Source of the DNA: Spirochaetia bacterium
Lineage (GTDB): Bacteria > Spirochaetota > Spirochaetia > DSM-2461
Direction of reading: 5' to 3'
DNA: 64,000 bases
Assembly: GCA_963668315.1 (NCBI GenBank)
Contig: OY764216.1
Coordinates: 2,912,001-2,976,000 of the forward strand
The notes beneath the pieces were generated by a model. That model had not been told where the DNA came from and made no database searches. It worked only from the letters and a program-made list of their open reading frames with translations. Of this stretch, positions 7,601 to 23,854 are shown in pieces; within the stretch, counting starts at the first letter, position 1; every line of letters begins with the position of its first letter. The position numbers were made by a program, and so were the translations under genes.

Positions 7601-7660
7601 AAGAAAAGCTCCTTTGATAAGGAAAATATGTCCCCGATGTGATGATAATAGAAAGGATGG

Positions 7661-7745
7661 GAATCCGCTACCTACGCCGGTATTATCCGGTTCAGGTTCT
7701 ATGGGTTTCATCTCAGGCCCTCAACAAGGACCACCCCAGGGATTG
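7661..7745 (-). promoter_or_regulatory. TPP riboswitch
   Basis: Minus strand reads GGGG...CTGAGATGAAACCC...ACCTGAACCGGATAATACCGGCGTAGG with AATCC/GGATT P1; upstream of thiBP. Confidence 0.95.
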
Positions 7746-7809
7746 AAAAAAGAATAGCCAAAAGAGAAAAAAAGATCAAGCCGTCAGGCTCTTCCCCTTT
7801 GTCCGTTTC

Positions 7810-16609: not shown

Positions 16610-17863
16610 CTATAAATCACGGGAATAGAGGGTGATGCGGTTCTTTCCCCTCTTCTTGGACTGGTACATGGCTTCATCGGCCCTGCTGATAATGTTCTTT
16701 TCATCCCCTTCCCAGTGGCGGCTGCAGAGGATTCCCATGCTCAGGGTAGGCTGCCGGTCGAATCCCAGGTCGGAAAGGGCTTCCCGGCTTTTAGCCTGAA
16801 AACGGTCTCGGATGCCTTCCGCTGCGTTCAGAGCCTGTTCTGGAGGGCAGTCATCCATAAGAAGGAGGAACTCATCCCCGCCGATTCGGGCGGGAATATC
16901 GCTTTCCCGGGTCTCATGGAGGAGAACCTCGCCCAGAATCTTAAGGATTTCATCACCCCCTTCGTGACCCGCTTCATCGTTGATCTCCTTCATCCCGTCC
17001 AGGTCGATGTAGAGTAGGGCGTAGAGGCGGAAATTCCTCCTCAGCTGGGATATGCAGTGGGAGAGGCTTTCCCAGATATAATCCCTTGAATAGACACCGG
17101 TCAGACCGTCATGGATGAGATCTTCCAGATACCGGGTCATCTCCTGCTCCAGAATCTCCTTTTCCTTCTGATCCTTACAGATGAAGGACTGGGTGTACCA
17201 GGTGAAACAGGCGGTCATGATGATCATGCCGATCCAGGACTGGGTTCTGGCCAGGGAGAACACAGCTGAGAGCAGTCCGTAGGCCCCCAGTACAAGAAAG
17301 CCTCCTGCCAGACCGATCATTAAAGGGCGGAATTCCCCGGCTTCCTTTCTCAGGAATACGGAGAGAGAGGTTCTTATGACCAGATAGGCGCAGATCAGAA
17401 TGTTGAGGATAATAAAGGGGGAAAATAACTCTCCTTTGACGAGGGAGTTATGGTTTTTTGCAGGATTCAGAACGGGAAGGAAGTAGTGATTTCCCTTCAG
17501 CCAGATCGAAAGGGTCAGCAGAATGAGGACCGTGAAGAGCCCCGCCCTAGTGATGGGGGGGATTTTTTTTATCCGATTGCTGAAAAGGGCGCCGGTCAGA
17601 GCGATGAGAAGGATGGCCGTGTAGTTCATCCTTGTCCAGAATAGTACCGAAGGAATACCCGGCAGCCAGGAGTAGAGGGAAAAACTGAATAGATGGAGAA
17701 AAATCGCCAGCTGAATAAGAATGATCTCCCCGATCGGCCTGTCCGTGCGGATGGTTCTGGCCTGTGATGCCAGAACCAGGGTTAAGCTGAGGATGATCAG
17801 AGCCGAGAGCAGGCTGATGGCGCTGTCGCAGGGGATATGGATATAGGAAGAGGAATCGGTCAC
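16610..17863 (-). CDS. Membrane-anchored diguanylate cyclase (about 7 TM + GGDEF)
   Basis: HDGLTGVY, DLDGMK, RESD I-site, GGDEF, ADEAMYQSK. Confidence 0.88.
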   Translation of the reverse strand: MTDSSSYIHIPCDSAISLLSALIILSLTLVLASQARTIRTDRPIGEIILIQLAIFLHLFSFSLYSWLPGIPSVLFWTRMNYTAILLIALTGALFSNRIKKIPPITRAGLFTVLILLTLSIWLKGNHYFLPVLNPAKNHNSLVKGELFSPFIILNILICAYLVIRTSLSVFLRKEAGEFRPLMIGLAGGFLVLGAYGLLSAVFSLARTQSWIGMIIMTACFTWYTQSFICKDQKEKEILEQEMTRYLEDLIHDGLTGVYSRDYIWESLSHCISQLRRNFRLYALLYIDLDGMKEINDEAGHEGGDEILKILGEVLLHETRESDIPARIGGDEFLLLMDDCPPEQALNAAEGIRDRFQAKSREALSDLGFDRQPTLSMGILCSRHWEGDEKNIISRADEAMYQSKKRGKNRITLYSRDL

Positions 17864-19107
17864 GTCCCGTCCCCCCTGTAATGGGTGATTCGGTCTTTTC
17901 CCGATTTCTTGGATTGATACATGGCCCGGTCGGCGCGGGACACCAGCTCCTTGGGGGAATCGGTCCAGTACTCACGGCTGACGATTCCTATGCTCAGGGA
18001 GAGACTCTCCCTGTTGCTCCAGTCGGAGAAATCGCCTTCCCTCCGGGAGGCGAAAAGCTTCTGGATATGGCGGGCCACTTTCTCTGCCCCCGCGGATGAG
18101 CTGTCCGGAAGAAACACGACAAATTCATCTCCCCCCATACGGGCGGCAATATCATAATTCCTCGTTTTGTCGAGTAGTATGTTTCCCAGGGCCTTAAGGA
18201 GAGCGTCCCCGGCGGCATGACCTCTTTCGTCGTTGAGAATTTTAAAATTGTCCACATCGAGATAGAGCAGACTGCATTCGTGGATGTTTCTGTTAATCTG
18301 GCTGTTTACCTGATGAATCGTTTCATAGAGATAATCCCGGGTGTAGACACCGGTAAGATTGTCATGGATGAGGTTATGATAGATTTTTGCCCTCTCCTTT
18401 CTGAGCCTTTCCAGTTCCTCGTGGTTTTCATGGACGCTGCGGGATACGTAGAGGGCCAGGGAAAAGGCCAGGGCGGCCGGTCCTACCCAGAGCTGGGGCT
18501 TTCCCCGGGACAGAACCGCCGAATATATCCCATCGAAGGAAGCGGAGAGAAAGAAAACCGCCATCCCGAAGACGACAGGTTTCAACCGGGGCTGCCGTTT
18601 CCGGTTTCTGAGGATGAAAATAATCATTTTGATGAGAACAAAGGCTGAAAGGAGAATCAAAAGGCCGATGTAATAGGGAAAAAGCGGACCTTTGATGACG
18701 GAATGATGGGATTTTTCCGGATTAAGACTGCCGGTGAAAATATAGGAGCCGGGAAGGAACATGATGGCCGTCAGAGCCAGGGAGAAGACGGCGTAGACAC
18801 GGCTCGTCAGGCCGTGTTTTCTCCCTTTGAGAGAATCATCGAGTAAACTGCAGGCACCGGGAGTAAGGGACGCCCCGGCGTAACAGATCCTGGTCCAGAG
18901 CAGAACATTTTCTGCCTCAAGGGATGATGTGTACAGAGCATATCCCAGAAGAAAAATGAAAAGGGACAGCTGGATGAGAATAAAATCCAGGGTCAGAATC
19001 ATGGTATGTCTCATTCTTATGTATAAGAGGCTGTATAAAGTGAACAGGAATACCAGGAACGCCCCCGCCAGGCTTCCCAGGGCATCCGTGTGAATGGCCA
19101 GATACAT
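17860..19107 (-). CDS. Membrane-anchored diguanylate cyclase (about 7 TM + GGDEF), paralog of neighbour
   Basis: HDNLTGVY, DVDNFK, RNYD I-site, GGDEF, ADRAMYQSK. Confidence 0.88.
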   Translation of the reverse strand: MYLAIHTDALGSLAGAFLVFLFTLYSLLYIRMRHTMILTLDFILIQLSLFIFLLGYALYTSSLEAENVLLWTRICYAGASLTPGACSLLDDSLKGRKHGLTSRVYAVFSLALTAIMFLPGSYIFTGSLNPEKSHHSVIKGPLFPYYIGLLILLSAFVLIKMIIFILRNRKRQPRLKPVVFGMAVFFLSASFDGIYSAVLSRGKPQLWVGPAALAFSLALYVSRSVHENHEELERLRKERAKIYHNLIHDNLTGVYTRDYLYETIHQVNSQINRNIHECSLLYLDVDNFKILNDERGHAAGDALLKALGNILLDKTRNYDIAARMGGDEFVVFLPDSSSAGAEKVARHIQKLFASRREGDFSDWSNRESLSLSIGIVSREYWTDSPKELVSRADRAMYQSKKSGKDRITHYRGDGT

Positions 19108-19178
19108 CCGTTTCTCCTTCCCTGTAAGTAATATTGTAGCAGGAAATAGTCCGATGTACAGTCAAAAATTGTAAATCC

Positions 19179-19207
19179 TTGACAAAGCGGGATTTTGTCG
19201 ATATAAA
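19179..19207 (+). promoter_or_regulatory. Sigma70 promoter of the valS leader
   Basis: TTGACA-17-TATAAA, 7 nt before the leader ATG. Confidence 0.7.
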
Positions 19208-19214
19208 AAGAGAC

Positions 19215-19307
19215 ATGAAAATTATTCTTTCCGCAGGAAAATCGAATGTCTCACTCGTCGTCGTCAGCGTGGTCGGCAGGAAAAAAGACATTTTTAGCGG
19301 AGAGTAA
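19215..19307 (+). CDS. Val-rich leader peptide MKIILSAGKSNVSLVVVSVVGRKKDIFSGE (not in ORF track)
   Basis: Manual translation; 6 Val codons in 9 consecutive codons; lies upstream of a terminator and valS. Confidence 0.8.
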   Translation: MKIILSAGKSNVSLVVVSVVGRKKDIFSGE

Positions 19308-19323
19308 GCAACCATAAAGGCAT

Positions 19324-19353
19324 AAGGCTCCGCTCTGGCGGGGCTTTTTTTTT
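19324..19353 (+). terminator. Attenuator terminator before valS
   Basis: AAGGCTCCGC-tctg-GCGGGGCTTT followed by a T run; 5' arm alternatively pairs with AGCGGAG at 19296-19302. Confidence 0.85.
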
Positions 19354-19378
19354 GGGGCGATTACAGGAGGACAGGAAC

Positions 19379-22012
19379 ATGAAGGCGATAGAGCTGGAGA
19401 AAAATTACAACCCGGAAGATTTCGAAGACCGGATTTACAAAGACTGGATGGACGAAGGCTGTTTCAAGCCCGCCGGAGACGACAGTAAAGATCCCTTCGT
19501 CATTGTGATCCCCCCTCCCAATGTTACCGGCGTCCTGCACATGGGACACGGTTTGAACAACTCCCTGCAGGATGTGCTCATCCGGTATCACCGGATGCAG
19601 CAGAGACCGACACTTTGGGTTCCCGGAACGGACCATGCCGGTATCGCCACACAGAACGTCGTGGAGAGAAGACTGCTGAAAGAGGGGAAGAGCCGCCACG
19701 ATCTGGGCCGTGAGAAGTTTATCGAAGAGACCTGGAAAGTCAAGGAGGAGCATCACAGCATTATTAAAAAACAGCTGATGAAGATTGGAGCCTCCTGTGA
19801 CTGGAGCCGGGAGCGGTTTACCATGGACGAGGGCCTTTCCAAGGCGGTACGGGAAGTTTTTGTAACCCTGTACGAAAGGGATCTTCTCTACAAGGGCGAG
19901 TATCTGGTCAACTGGTGTCCCAGCTGCGGCACCGCCCTGGCCGACGACGAAGTGGACCACGAGGAGAAACCGGGAAAGCTTTACGATATCGCCTATCCCC
20001 TGTCCGACGGATCCGGTGAGATTATCGTATCCACGACTCGCCCGGAAACCATGTTCGGCGATACGGCCGTGGCCGTTCATCCCGACGACGAAAGATACAC
20101 CCATCTGGTGGGCAAAACTCTCGACCTGCCCCTGACCGACAGGAAAATCAGGATCATCGCAGACTCCTACTGCCGGATGGATTTCGGTTCCGGTGCCGTT
20201 AAGATGACCCCCGCCCACGACCCCAATGACTGGGAAGTCGGACTCCGCCATGATCTGGAGAGAATCAATGTTCTGAATCCCGACGGGACCATGAACGGGA
20301 ATACTCCCGCCCATATTCAGGGAATGGACGCCAAGACCGCCCGGAAGCAGACACTGGCCGACCTGGAAGCGGGCGGCTACCTCAAGGGCAGCAAGGACAA
20401 TCCCCATCAGGTGGGGCACTGCTACCGCTGCAAGACCGTGGTGGAGCCCTATATGTCCAAGCAGTGGTTCGTGCGGATGGAGCCCATGGCCGAGAAAGCC
20501 CTGAACGCCTGGAAGAAGGATGAGATCCGCTTCTATCCGCGTAAATGGGAGAACACCTACGCCCACTGGATGGAAGGCATCCGGGACTGGTGCATCAGCC
20601 GGCAGCTCTGGTGGGGCCACAGGATTCCCGCCTGGACCTGTTCCGACTGCGGCGAGCTCTCCGTTTCCCGGGACGATCTGACCGTCTGTCCCAAGTGCGG
20701 CAGCAAAAATGTTCAGCAGGATCCCGATGTTCTGGATACCTGGTTCTCCTCCTGGCTGTGGCCCTTCAGTACCCTGGGATGGCCGGAGAAAACGGCCGAT
20801 CTGGAGAAATTCTTCGCCACCACCGCCCTGGTTACGGGATACGACATCATCTTTTTCTGGGTGGCCCGCATGATTATGGCCAGCCTTGAGTTTATGGGGG
20901 AAGTGCCCTTCCGCGATATCTATATGACCGGTCTTGTGCGGGATGCCCAGGGACGTAAAATGAGTAAATCCCTGGGGAACGGACTCGATCCTCTGGAGAT
21001 CGTCGATAAGTACGGGGCCGACGCCATGAAATTCACCCTGGTTTATCTTTCAAGCCAGGGGGAGGACATCCCCGTGGGCATGGACACCTTCCAGATCGGA
21101 TCAAAATTCTGCAACAAGATCTGGAACGCCACCCGTTATATCCTCATGAATCTGGAAGGCCGGGAACTGGTGGAAAATCCCGAGCTCAGAACGGTGGACA
21201 AATGGATCTACCACAGGCTGAACGAGGCGGTGAAATCCATGGAGAAGGCCTTCGACTCCTACCGGTTCGATGACATGGGGCACGGTATCTACGAATATTT
21301 CTGGAACGACTTCTGCGACTGGTACGTGGAGGCCACCAAGCTTTACCTCTATTCCGACGACGAGGCGGAGAAGAACCGGGCCGTAACGGTCATCCTCAAC
21401 GTACTGGAAGAGTCCCTCCGGCTGATGCACCCCATGCTGAGTTTCCTGACCGAGGAGATCTACCGGAAGCTTCCCAATACCCGGGGAAACATCATTTCCG
21501 CCCGCTATCCCCAGGTTGAGGAGGCAAGGGAGGACCAGGCTCTGGCCGCCCATTTCGAACTTCTCCAGGATCTGGTCCAGAAGGTCAGAACTCTGCGCAG
21601 CGAGTTTACCATTCCCCCTTCCAAGAAGATCGGACTGGCCGTTCGCTGTGACGAAGAACTCTACGAATTCTTCAAGGAAGCGGGTGATCTGATCGCCTCT
21701 CTGGTCAAAGCCGAGGAGATCACGTTCGTCACCGGAGAAGAGGCTTTCTCCGGCGCGGTCACCGCCGTCGGCAAAGGGTTCGAAGCCCATGCCCTGATCC
21801 GTGATCTCATCGACATGGATAAGGAAATTGACCGAATGAAGAAAACCCTTGAGAAAAATATCAAGATGAAGGCCCAGACCGAAAAGAAGCTGGCCAATGA
21901 GAATTTTACCAGCCGCGCTCCCGCCGATGTTATCGCCAAGGAGAAGGAGAAACTGGACGAGTTCGCCCAGGCCATAGAGAAAATGGAAGCCTATCTGAAG
22001 GATCTGAGCTAA
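19379..22012 (+). CDS. valS: Valine--tRNA ligase
   Basis: PPPNVTG, HMGH, DWCISRQLWWGH, KMSKS, C-terminal coiled coil; ATG 19379 with AGGAGG SD. Confidence 0.97.
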   Translation: MKAIELEKNYNPEDFEDRIYKDWMDEGCFKPAGDDSKDPFVIVIPPPNVTGVLHMGHGLNNSLQDVLIRYHRMQQRPTLWVPGTDHAGIATQNVVERRLLKEGKSRHDLGREKFIEETWKVKEEHHSIIKKQLMKIGASCDWSRERFTMDEGLSKAVREVFVTLYERDLLYKGEYLVNWCPSCGTALADDEVDHEEKPGKLYDIAYPLSDGSGEIIVSTTRPETMFGDTAVAVHPDDERYTHLVGKTLDLPLTDRKIRIIADSYCRMDFGSGAVKMTPAHDPNDWEVGLRHDLERINVLNPDGTMNGNTPAHIQGMDAKTARKQTLADLEAGGYLKGSKDNPHQVGHCYRCKTVVEPYMSKQWFVRMEPMAEKALNAWKKDEIRFYPRKWENTYAHWMEGIRDWCISRQLWWGHRIPAWTCSDCGELSVSRDDLTVCPKCGSKNVQQDPDVLDTWFSSWLWPFSTLGWPEKTADLEKFFATTALVTGYDIIFFWVARMIMASLEFMGEVPFRDIYMTGLVRDAQGRKMSKSLGNGLDPLEIVDKYGADAMKFTLVYLSSQGEDIPVGMDTFQIGSKFCNKIWNATRYILMNLEGRELVENPELRTVDKWIYHRLNEAVKSMEKAFDSYRFDDMGHGIYEYFWNDFCDWYVEATKLYLYSDDEAEKNRAVTVILNVLEESLRLMHPMLSFLTEEIYRKLPNTRGNIISARYPQVEEAREDQALAAHFELLQDLVQKVRTLRSEFTIPPSKKIGLAVRCDEELYEFFKEAGDLIASLVKAEEITFVTGEEAFSGAVTAVGKGFEAHALIRDLIDMDKEIDRMKKTLEKNIKMKAQTEKKLANENFTSRAPADVIAKEKEKLDEFAQAIEKMEAYLKDLS

Positions 22013-22429: not shown

Positions 22430-23854
22430 ATGAAAACATTTTTCACAAGACTCGAAACACTGGCAAAGGAGAAAAACAGTCTCCTTTGTGTGGGCCTTGA
22501 TCCGCGTATCGACTGGGAGGAAGGAACCTCTCCCTACCGTCCCCTGGTGGAATGGAACGAAAGAATCATCGAAGCCACCGCCGATTACGCCATATGCTAT
22601 AAACCGAACATCGCTTTCTTCGAATCCTACGGTCCGGAGGGACTCAGAGCCCTGGAAAAGGTCATGGAGACGGTTCCCGAAGAGATCCCCGTGCTTATCG
22701 ATGCCAAAAGGAATGACATCGGTTCCACGGCGCAGGCCTATGCGGATGCCCTTTTCGGTTATTACAACGCCGACTGCGTCACCCTTTCGCCCTACATGGG
22801 CCGCGACGCCGTAGACCCCTTCCTGAAATGGGAGGATCGGGGGATGTTCCTCCTGGCAAGAACGACGAATCCCGGAGCCCCCGCGTTCCAGGATCTGATG
22901 GTAACCCTTCCCGGCGGGGAACAGGGCGAGATGTATGTGAAAACCGCTATTGAATGCACCTCCTGGTCTGACCGGGTGGGGCTGGTTGTGGCCGGCAACG
23001 ATCTGGATGCCCTGCGGAAAATCCGTTATTACTGCCCGGATACCTGGTTCCTGACTCCCGGCATCGGAAGTCAGGGCGGTTCCATGGTCGACGCCGTGGC
23101 CGCCGGACAGAGAAAGGACGGGCTGGGAATCCTTCCCAACGTCTCCCGGGGAATAGCCGGAGCGGATGACCCCGCTAAGGCGGCCAGGGAGTTTGTCGAC
23201 AGCCTGAACAAGGCCCGCGAGAAGGCTTCCGTAACCGTTCAGGGTGCCGATATCAAGGAGATACAGAAAAGGGAAGTCATTGACGGCCTGATCGAAAATG
23301 AATGTTTCCGGGTAGGGGAGTTCACCCTTAAATCGGGGAAGAAATCTCCCTTCTACATCGATCTGAGAAGAGTCTCCTCCGATCCCTCCCTGCTGGCGAA
23401 AGTCGCCAGAGCCTACGCCTCCCTCCTCAAGGGGAAAAAGTATGACCGCCTGGCCGGTATCCCACTGGCCGCCCTGCCTCTGGCCACGGCCGTTTCTCTG
23501 GAAGCGGGAATCCCCCTTATCTACCCCCGCATGACCATGAAGGCCCACGGTACGGGAAACCGCATCGAAGGGGAGTGGAAAAAGGGAGAGAAAGTCGCCC
23601 TTCTGGACGATCTCATCACCACCGGCAAAAGCAAGATTGAAGCCATCGATATCCTCCGCGAGGAGGGACTGGTTGTGGAAGATCTCTTTGTCCTTCTGGA
23701 GAGGGGGGCTCAGGGGCGCAAGGACATGACCGCCGTGGACATCAGCCTTCACGCCTATGCCCATGTGGAAGAGTTCCTGGTTCCCTGTCACGAGAAGGAT
23801 CTGATCGATAAGGACCAGCTGGAGTCGATGCTCACCTACGCCCGGGAGGAATAG
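22430..23854 (+). CDS. pyrF: Bifunctional orotidine-5'-phosphate decarboxylase / orotate phosphoribosyltransferase (PyrF-PyrE fusion)
   Basis: CVGLDP, DAKRNDIGST, PGIGSQGG; then FTLKSGKKSPFYIDLR, LLDDLITTG. Confidence 0.93.
   Translation: MKTFFTRLETLAKEKNSLLCVGLDPRIDWEEGTSPYRPLVEWNERIIEATADYAICYKPNIAFFESYGPEGLRALEKVMETVPEEIPVLIDAKRNDIGSTAQAYADALFGYYNADCVTLSPYMGRDAVDPFLKWEDRGMFLLARTTNPGAPAFQDLMVTLPGGEQGEMYVKTAIECTSWSDRVGLVVAGNDLDALRKIRYYCPDTWFLTPGIGSQGGSMVDAVAAGQRKDGLGILPNVSRGIAGADDPAKAAREFVDSLNKAREKASVTVQGADIKEIQKREVIDGLIENECFRVGEFTLKSGKKSPFYIDLRRVSSDPSLLAKVARAYASLLKGKKYDRLAGIPLAALPLATAVSLEAGIPLIYPRMTMKAHGTGNRIEGEWKKGEKVALLDDLITTGKSKIEAIDILREEGLVVEDLFVLLERGAQGRKDMTAVDISLHAYAHVEEFLVPCHEKDLIDKDQLESMLTYAREE

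Follow-up and report, generated by a model that had tools for sequence, protein, structure and literature searches.

Within a 64,000-nucleotide window of the genome of an uncultured spirochaete (contig OY764216.1, positions 2,912,001 to 2,976,000; coordinates below are those of the window, on the + strand unless stated), the only valS gene found in that genome is preceded by a short leader that resembles a transcription attenuator. valS (19379..22012) encodes an 877-residue valine--tRNA ligase that matches TIGR00422 at 1131 bits (cut-off 612) and PRK05729 also above its cut-off, and its Shine-Dalgarno sequence, AGGAGG, lies at 19365..19370. Further upstream, a -35 hexamer TTGACA (19179..19184) and a -10 hexamer TATAAA (19202..19207) form a sigma70-type promoter with a spacer of 17 nt, and the predicted +1 falls at about 19214-19215. 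The ATG of an unannotated 30-codon open reading frame (ORF; 19215..19307, with a TAA stop at 19305-19307) begins 7 nt after the -10, has no Shine-Dalgarno sequence, and is predicted to be leaderless. Six of its codons, at positions 12, 15, 16, 17, 19 and 20, specify valine (five GUC and one GUG within nine codons, 19248..19274). The ORF is followed by an intrinsic terminator (19324..19353) made of a hairpin at 19324-19347 and a nine-U tail at 19345-19353 (-15.1 kcal/mol, z -3.8), and AGCGGAG at 19296..19302, inside the end of the ORF, is the exact complement of CTCCGCT at 19328-19334 in the terminator 5′ arm. A sequence-only reading of this DNA had described the promoter, the Val-rich ORF, the terminator ahead of valS and this complement, and each is present where it had put them. 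We add a predicted protector (1:2) helix, absent from that reading and conserved in the host genus, whose 5′ arm at 19227..19238 pairs with 19293-19304 in the minimum free energy fold.

An ORF rich in cognate codons, an intrinsic terminator and an antiterminator mutually exclusive with that terminator are thus all found in front of valS. Judging from sequence comparison and folding models, we give a probability of about 0.82 to the valS leader being a classical ribosome-mediated transcription attenuator, specific for valine. In the proposed mechanism, transcription would begin at the AUG or beside it, with a ribosome loading in the absence of a Shine-Dalgarno sequence. With ample Val-tRNA, this ribosome would reach codons 26-31 and cover 19296-19302, the terminator (3:4) would form, and the RNA would end near 19350. 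With scarce Val-tRNA, it would instead stall at codons 12-20, keeping the protector helix open and leaving 19296-19302, the 5′ strand of the predicted antiterminator (2:3), free to pair with the emerging terminator 5′ arm, and polymerase would read into valS. Extra valyl-tRNA synthetase (ValRS) would restore tRNA charging and close the feedback loop. The upstream neighbour of valS is a divergent GGDEF gene, so the leader transcript is not read-through from another operon.

When the bases of the leader ORF were shuffled 200,000 times, 4 shuffles gave at least six Val within nine codons, and even five are found in none of the 3,098 intergenic small ORFs of the host genome, a set that excludes the valS leader itself, which is masked by an overlapping antisense ORF. 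A 7-nt complement to the terminator occurs in 0.7% of shuffles and a 6-nt one in 3.6%; its weight comes from its conservation and not from these odds alone. GUC makes up five of the six control codons, compared with 33% genome-wide, and tRNA-Val genes with GAC and TAC anticodons are both present; from work in E. coli, GUC is a starvation-sensitive codon. Our promoter scan skipped the promoter of the leader, whose -10 has no T at position 6. Elsewhere in the host genome, a search for paralogous copies of the leader returned just short matches to the terminator tail.

In 33 of the family's 38 genomes we compared the sequence ahead of valS, and four have a Val-rich leader there: the host (G000), two of the three other members of its genus (G002 and G003; the third, G001, is without it), and G008, which represents a sister genus. 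The other 29 lack it. ValS of G002 and G003 is 88-89% identical to that of the host, and the three leaders align without gaps over 139 columns, which start at the ATG and stop with the last U of the U-run, with the length and frame of the ORF unchanged and the stop, antiterminator and terminator at identical positions. Both promoter hexamers are invariant in the three, with the ATG 7 nt from the -10 in each. All six Val codons are kept in all three leaders, one of them in a synonymous form, whereas the residue changes at 12 of the 24 other codons and 18 of the 30 residues of the peptide are identical. Variation reaches 17 of 18 columns in the linker and 11 of 19 in the spacer, compared with 2 of 12 in the antiterminator strand plus stop and 3 of 27 in the terminator; the six core pairs of the antiterminator and the seven of the terminator are invariant. 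In the protector helix, 86% of cells are paired, and 5 of 12 pairs change on one side and none on both.

In the sister genus, whose ValS is 82% identical to that of the host (over 604 assembled residues), G008 carries a more diverged leader of 24 codons, again with six Val in nine codons, an ATG 5 nt after the -10 and a -35 hexamer reading TTGACT. Its terminator differs in sequence and is complemented by a strand, likewise different, that lies just past the leader stop; the protector helix was not seen on folding this leader. The sequence-only reading had proposed looking in relatives for conserved Val runs and for covarying stems. The runs are there, kept in G002 and G003 and recurring in the diverged leader of G008. 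Covarying stems failed to appear: the three leaders of the host genus contain no two-sided compensatory change, and their pair counts do not exceed those of shuffles. Because this trio gives no such signal, we rank the replacement of the whole helix in G008 as the best structural evidence that these sequences offer for a switch.

The two genera form one ValS clade (support 94/93) in a midpoint-rooted tree of the first 600 residues, with 23 rows comprising 22 of 30 loci plus G008. This grouping fits a single gain of the valS leader in the ancestor of the two sister genera. In G001 (L002), the 60 nt before valS keep the TTGACA hexamer and join the promoter straight to the hairpin with no leader between; this hairpin has two extra G-U pairs and folds at -10.5 kcal/mol, compared with -15.1 kcal/mol in the host. 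The arrangement has the appearance of a leader deletion followed by terminator decay, and the junction may alternatively be a misassembly. A contig from a second study that covers the host locus shows 18 differences over 601 nt, 3 of them inside 19179-19353, which are too few to weigh; none falls in the hexamers, the Val codons or the switch helices.

In the regions searched, no Val leader was found outside the clade of these two genera. Among the metagenome matches listed (at least 80 valS loci with 52 distinct upstream ends), none is close to the host genus, and the upstream ORFs reach at most three Val in nine codons. Of 86 genome contigs and fetched regions with at least 200 nt upstream, three have six Val, all three among the known leaders, and two have four Val with no matching terminator. 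A pattern specific to the leader of the host genus found matches in 3 of 38 genomes of the order. A looser pattern matched 6 of 401 genomes of the class, two of them (G044 and G398) by chance; it demands one particular ValS start and is unfit to show absence. The regions of G028, G034 and G038, whose placement was unreliable, were left out of the counts, and 5 of the 14 genomes of one set had no ValS match.

We modelled the switch by folding nascent RNA at equilibrium, masking its 5′ part to 9-15 nt past the ribosomal A site and cutting the transcript before the terminator 3′ arm. In the host leader, the probability of the antiterminator is 1.0 with the ribosome at every Val codon and 0.0 with the ribosome at the stop. 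In the G008 leader it is likewise 1.0 at the Val codons and 0.0-0.5 at the stop across the 9-15 nt footprints. A ribosome at the stop blocks the antiterminator in all three leaders of the host genus, and in G008 at footprints of 12-15 nt. The switch that the sequence-only reading had sketched is accordingly clear in the models of G000 and G008 and partial at the Val codons of G002 and G003. Free of ribosomes, the RNA of the host genus can form the protector helix (19227-19238/19293-19304), which would hide the antiterminator strand. The antiterminator nevertheless prevails in ribosome-free nascent host RNA (0.78), and G008 has no protector helix, which together leave the outcome in the absence of translation uncertain.

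Several results weigh against this interpretation, among them the lack of covariation already described. The known leaders number just four, of which three are close relatives, and the bootstrap value of 94 for their clade is slightly below the star threshold. Folded in isolation, the antiterminator helix is non-significant (z -1.1). At a 12-nt footprint, the probability of the antiterminator at the Val codons is just 0.0-0.6 in G003, and in G002 it is 0.1-0.6 at codons 12-17 before returning to 1.0 at V19-V22; these low values arise because other helices compete, although the terminator arm remains mostly occupied in both. In full-length RNA of the host genus, the terminator prevails at almost every Val position (P 0.69-1.0). 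The finished terminator being the more stable structure, read-through would have to be kinetic and settled while transcription proceeds, in keeping with the general view of classical attenuators. Finally, a modelled stall anywhere from about codon 4 to codon 24 antiterminates, so that specificity for valine rests only on the codon cluster.

This breadth of effective stalls invites two other explanations. The leader could be multivalent, sensing Ile or Leu besides Val as a gauge of branched-chain amino acids: Ile3-Ile4 is invariant in the three leaders of the host genus, in the model, stalling as early as codon 3-5 suffices for the antiterminator, and in G008 Leu and Ile are interspersed with the Val codons and also follow them. 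We regard this as unlikely, since the Ile pair is absent from G008, Leu14 of the host is Pro in G002 and G003, the A/U-rich 5′ end may merely suit leaderless initiation, and a stall at codon 3-4 would precede transcription of the switch. It is more improbable yet that the hairpin is a partial terminator, either fixed, with basal read-through, or responsive to a general slowing of ribosomes, with no specificity for valine. In the model any stall over codons 4-24 antiterminates, G001 manages without the leader, and 29 of the 33 family genomes compared have none; however, the Val codons are selectively conserved and stand before the very enzyme that charges valine, and the match between residue and gene recurs in this genome at pheS, tyrS and leuA.

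The conserved length and frame of the ORF in the host genus, together with its 18 identical residues, could also point to a functional small protein whose gene simply ends at the terminator. Conservation follows the RNA helices and the Val codons, however, the peptide of G008 is alike in little except the Val run, and full termination would silence the sole valS found in the host, with no second promoter-like site seen on inspecting the interval between the terminator and valS; we give this explanation very little credence. Hardly any remains for a degenerate T-box or for a Val run that arises as the complement of Thr codons in an antisense ORF of 132 codons (minus strand, 18917-19315). This lineage does have T-boxes scoring below the Rfam cut-off and the antisense ORF does exist in the host, yet the T-box model that detects an element at thrS finds nothing at valS at E≤10, and the antisense frame overlaps the adjacent gene in the host, whereas in G002 and G003 it is closed after some 50-70 codons. 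A valine-specific attenuator therefore remains the interpretation that we favour.

The absence of a T-box consensus, claimed in the sequence-only reading, holds up in the Rfam search: RF00230 has no match at the valS locus, either at the gathering score or at E≤10. The same model finds one element in the host genome, upstream of thrS (E 5e-15; L031:1508-1779, G000:C1:2656507-2656778), which at 71 bits is below the Rfam cut-off of 93. Four of five relatives have one such sub-threshold T-box each, three of them at thrS by position and none at valS. Among the other Rfam leader families, the best match at the valS locus is Phe_leader, at 22.5 bits against a cut-off of 55, and it falls mainly on the terminator.

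None of the four leaders has either the room or the motif for a Shine-Dalgarno sequence, and the distance from -10 to ATG is short in each, so that the leader ORF itself is probably translated from a leaderless start. At 56 of 662 promoter-like sites in the host genome, an ATG in frame with a long ORF lies 5-9 nt downstream of the -10, with a peak of 19 at 6 nt and 13 at 7 nt compared with 1-9 per position further out, and an SD-like motif accompanies only 4 of these 56 sites. The peak and the rarity of such motifs suggest that leaderless translation is likely common in this organism. The candidate leaderless mRNAs of the host include alaS.

Around the locus, two tandem membrane-anchored GGDEF-type genes, one of them confirmed by the profile scan, lie divergent from valS at 16610-19107 on the minus strand. 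A pyrF-pyrE fusion is found 3′ of valS (22430-23854, + strand), and a TPP riboswitch scoring over the Rfam cut-off at 7651-7748 on the minus strand.

In E. coli, the leader gene of pheST is pheM. Attenuation by a leader peptide is established for this phenylalanyl-tRNA synthetase operon (PMC11802643), and the valS leader shares its layout of cognate-codon leader, antiterminator and intrinsic terminator before a synthetase gene, as well as the feedback logic. It differs in sensing Val, in being predicted leaderless, in its spirochaete host and in lacking sequence homology. In Streptomyces, attenuators of leuS and trpS have been predicted by comparison, and ileS of the same phylum has a T-box (PMC1262725); there too a lineage-restricted classical attenuator stands before a synthetase gene in a phylum that also uses T-boxes, although the amino acid and the phylum differ, and the accessible portion of that paper leaves valS unmentioned. 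Val codons act as sensors in the ilv leaders of Caulobacter ilvBN (PMC4117421) and M. tuberculosis ilvB1 (PMC13236596), and there, as modelled for valS, a ribosome at the stop codon masks the antiterminator strand. Unlike these multivalent leaders of biosynthetic operons, the valS leader is nearly pure in Val and would control a synthetase. Mycobacteria offer leaderless polycysteine short ORFs (bioRxiv 10.1101/834739), in which the sensor ORF is again leaderless and carries a homopolymeric run of codons, and which belong to a genome-wide set; they act on translation, Ms5788A hiding a Shine-Dalgarno sequence, whereas the predicted output of the valS leader is an intrinsic terminator.

The sequence-only reading had also invoked the valS T-box of Firmicutes. 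In that phylum T-box control of valS is widespread (PMC2494555), and it has in common with the spirochaete leader the target gene, the tRNA-Val charging signal and the terminator/antiterminator output. It works without a ribosome, and since the host is a spirochaete with no T-box match at valS, the comparison serves as a contrast only. For Spirochaetales, the available portion of one study reports generic leader ORFs, draws no link to amino acids and leaves valS unmentioned (PMC4833913). Searching the full-text literature, with most subscription papers beyond reach, yielded no leader-peptide attenuator at valS, nor any in a spirochaete. The abstract of the 2010 survey by Lopatovskaya et al. 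reportedly does not list valS. The mechanism is a textbook one; its predicted use at valS and in Spirochaetota would be new, as far as the literature search reached.

The valS leader has company in this genome. A scan blind to gene identity returned 140 small-ORF-plus-terminator loci in the host, of which seven have both a run, five or more of one residue in nine codons, and a complement 6 nt or longer. In four of these the residue matches the gene behind: valS (Val), pheS (Phe), tyrS (Tyr) and leuA (Ile/Leu; G000:C1:872797, minus strand). The other three precede an aminotransferase gene (Ala) and an aldolase-like gene (Phe/Tyr), or resemble a gene end. Inspecting the sequence ahead of other genes brought to light a Thr leader at asd, a Trp-Trp leader at a second trpS, a Lys leader at a truncated lysS and a Leu/Val/Ile leader at ilvN-ilvB, and no cognate leader was seen at ileS, aspS, serS, proS, leuS, metG or alaS of the host; asnS, which was poorly placed, is left out of this list. 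The Tyr leader (G000:C1:2988800, + strand, L133; also L132, L134 and L136) has 5-6 Tyr and a terminator in all four genomes of the host genus. In other genera it occurs at one of seven tyrS loci, a second copy in G011, and is absent at the main tyrS of six genomes. The pheS leader (G000:C1:197784, minus strand, L183) is Phe-rich with a perfect promoter and a terminator, and is present in all three genomes of the host genus in which pheS is assembled and in four of six genomes checked in other genera.

The remaining loci are more varied. An Ala-run leader with a terminator precedes a PRK06855 PLP aminotransferase gene (G000:C1:255810, minus strand, L302), which hints that this enzyme makes alanine. 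A Phe/Tyr-rich leader with an 8-nt antiterminator complement (G000:C1:4111460, minus strand, L303) stands before a gene related, below cut-off, to 4-hydroxy-2-oxovalerate aldolase, and the Thr leader of asd is at G000:C1:466043 (minus strand). A Lys-containing leader and terminator (G000:C1:3906515-3907700, + strand, L306) precede a class II lysS truncated at 289 codons with internal loss; the tail of this terminator matches that of valS over 18 nt. The Trp-Trp leader and terminator of the second trpS (G000:C1:5316200-5316520, + strand, L307; L135 in G003) likely start with GTG in the host. No U-tailed terminator is evident in the long Leu/Val/Ile leader of ilvN-ilvB (G000:C1, about 2138200, minus strand), which may work through the Shine-Dalgarno sequence. 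We considered whether the valS leader derives from this ilv leader, and found no similarity between the two.

Taken together, these distributions incline us, somewhat beyond even odds, to the view that the family builds leaderless or near-leaderless codon-sensing attenuators gene by gene: broadly at pheS, in two genera at valS and in one at tyrS, with the T-box confined to thrS. To that same view, held no more firmly, belongs the idea that such switches could evolve in few mutational steps where transcription begins at an AUG.

The scope for surprise is limited by the textbook mechanism and by the confinement of the element to four uncultured genomes. If the interpretation is right, valS would join the short list of synthetase genes under leader-peptide attenuation, the mechanism would extend to Spirochaetota, and a leaderless sensor ORF would be driving an intrinsic-terminator switch. 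Matched leaders of this kind also hint at the substrates of genes that lack annotation, the aminotransferase gene behind the Ala leader being an example. With a gain apparent in one clade and a loss in G001, ideas on how the switch evolves can be put to the test, and if attenuators are indeed built gene by gene, this family would document how ribosome-sensed control of synthetases is born and lost.

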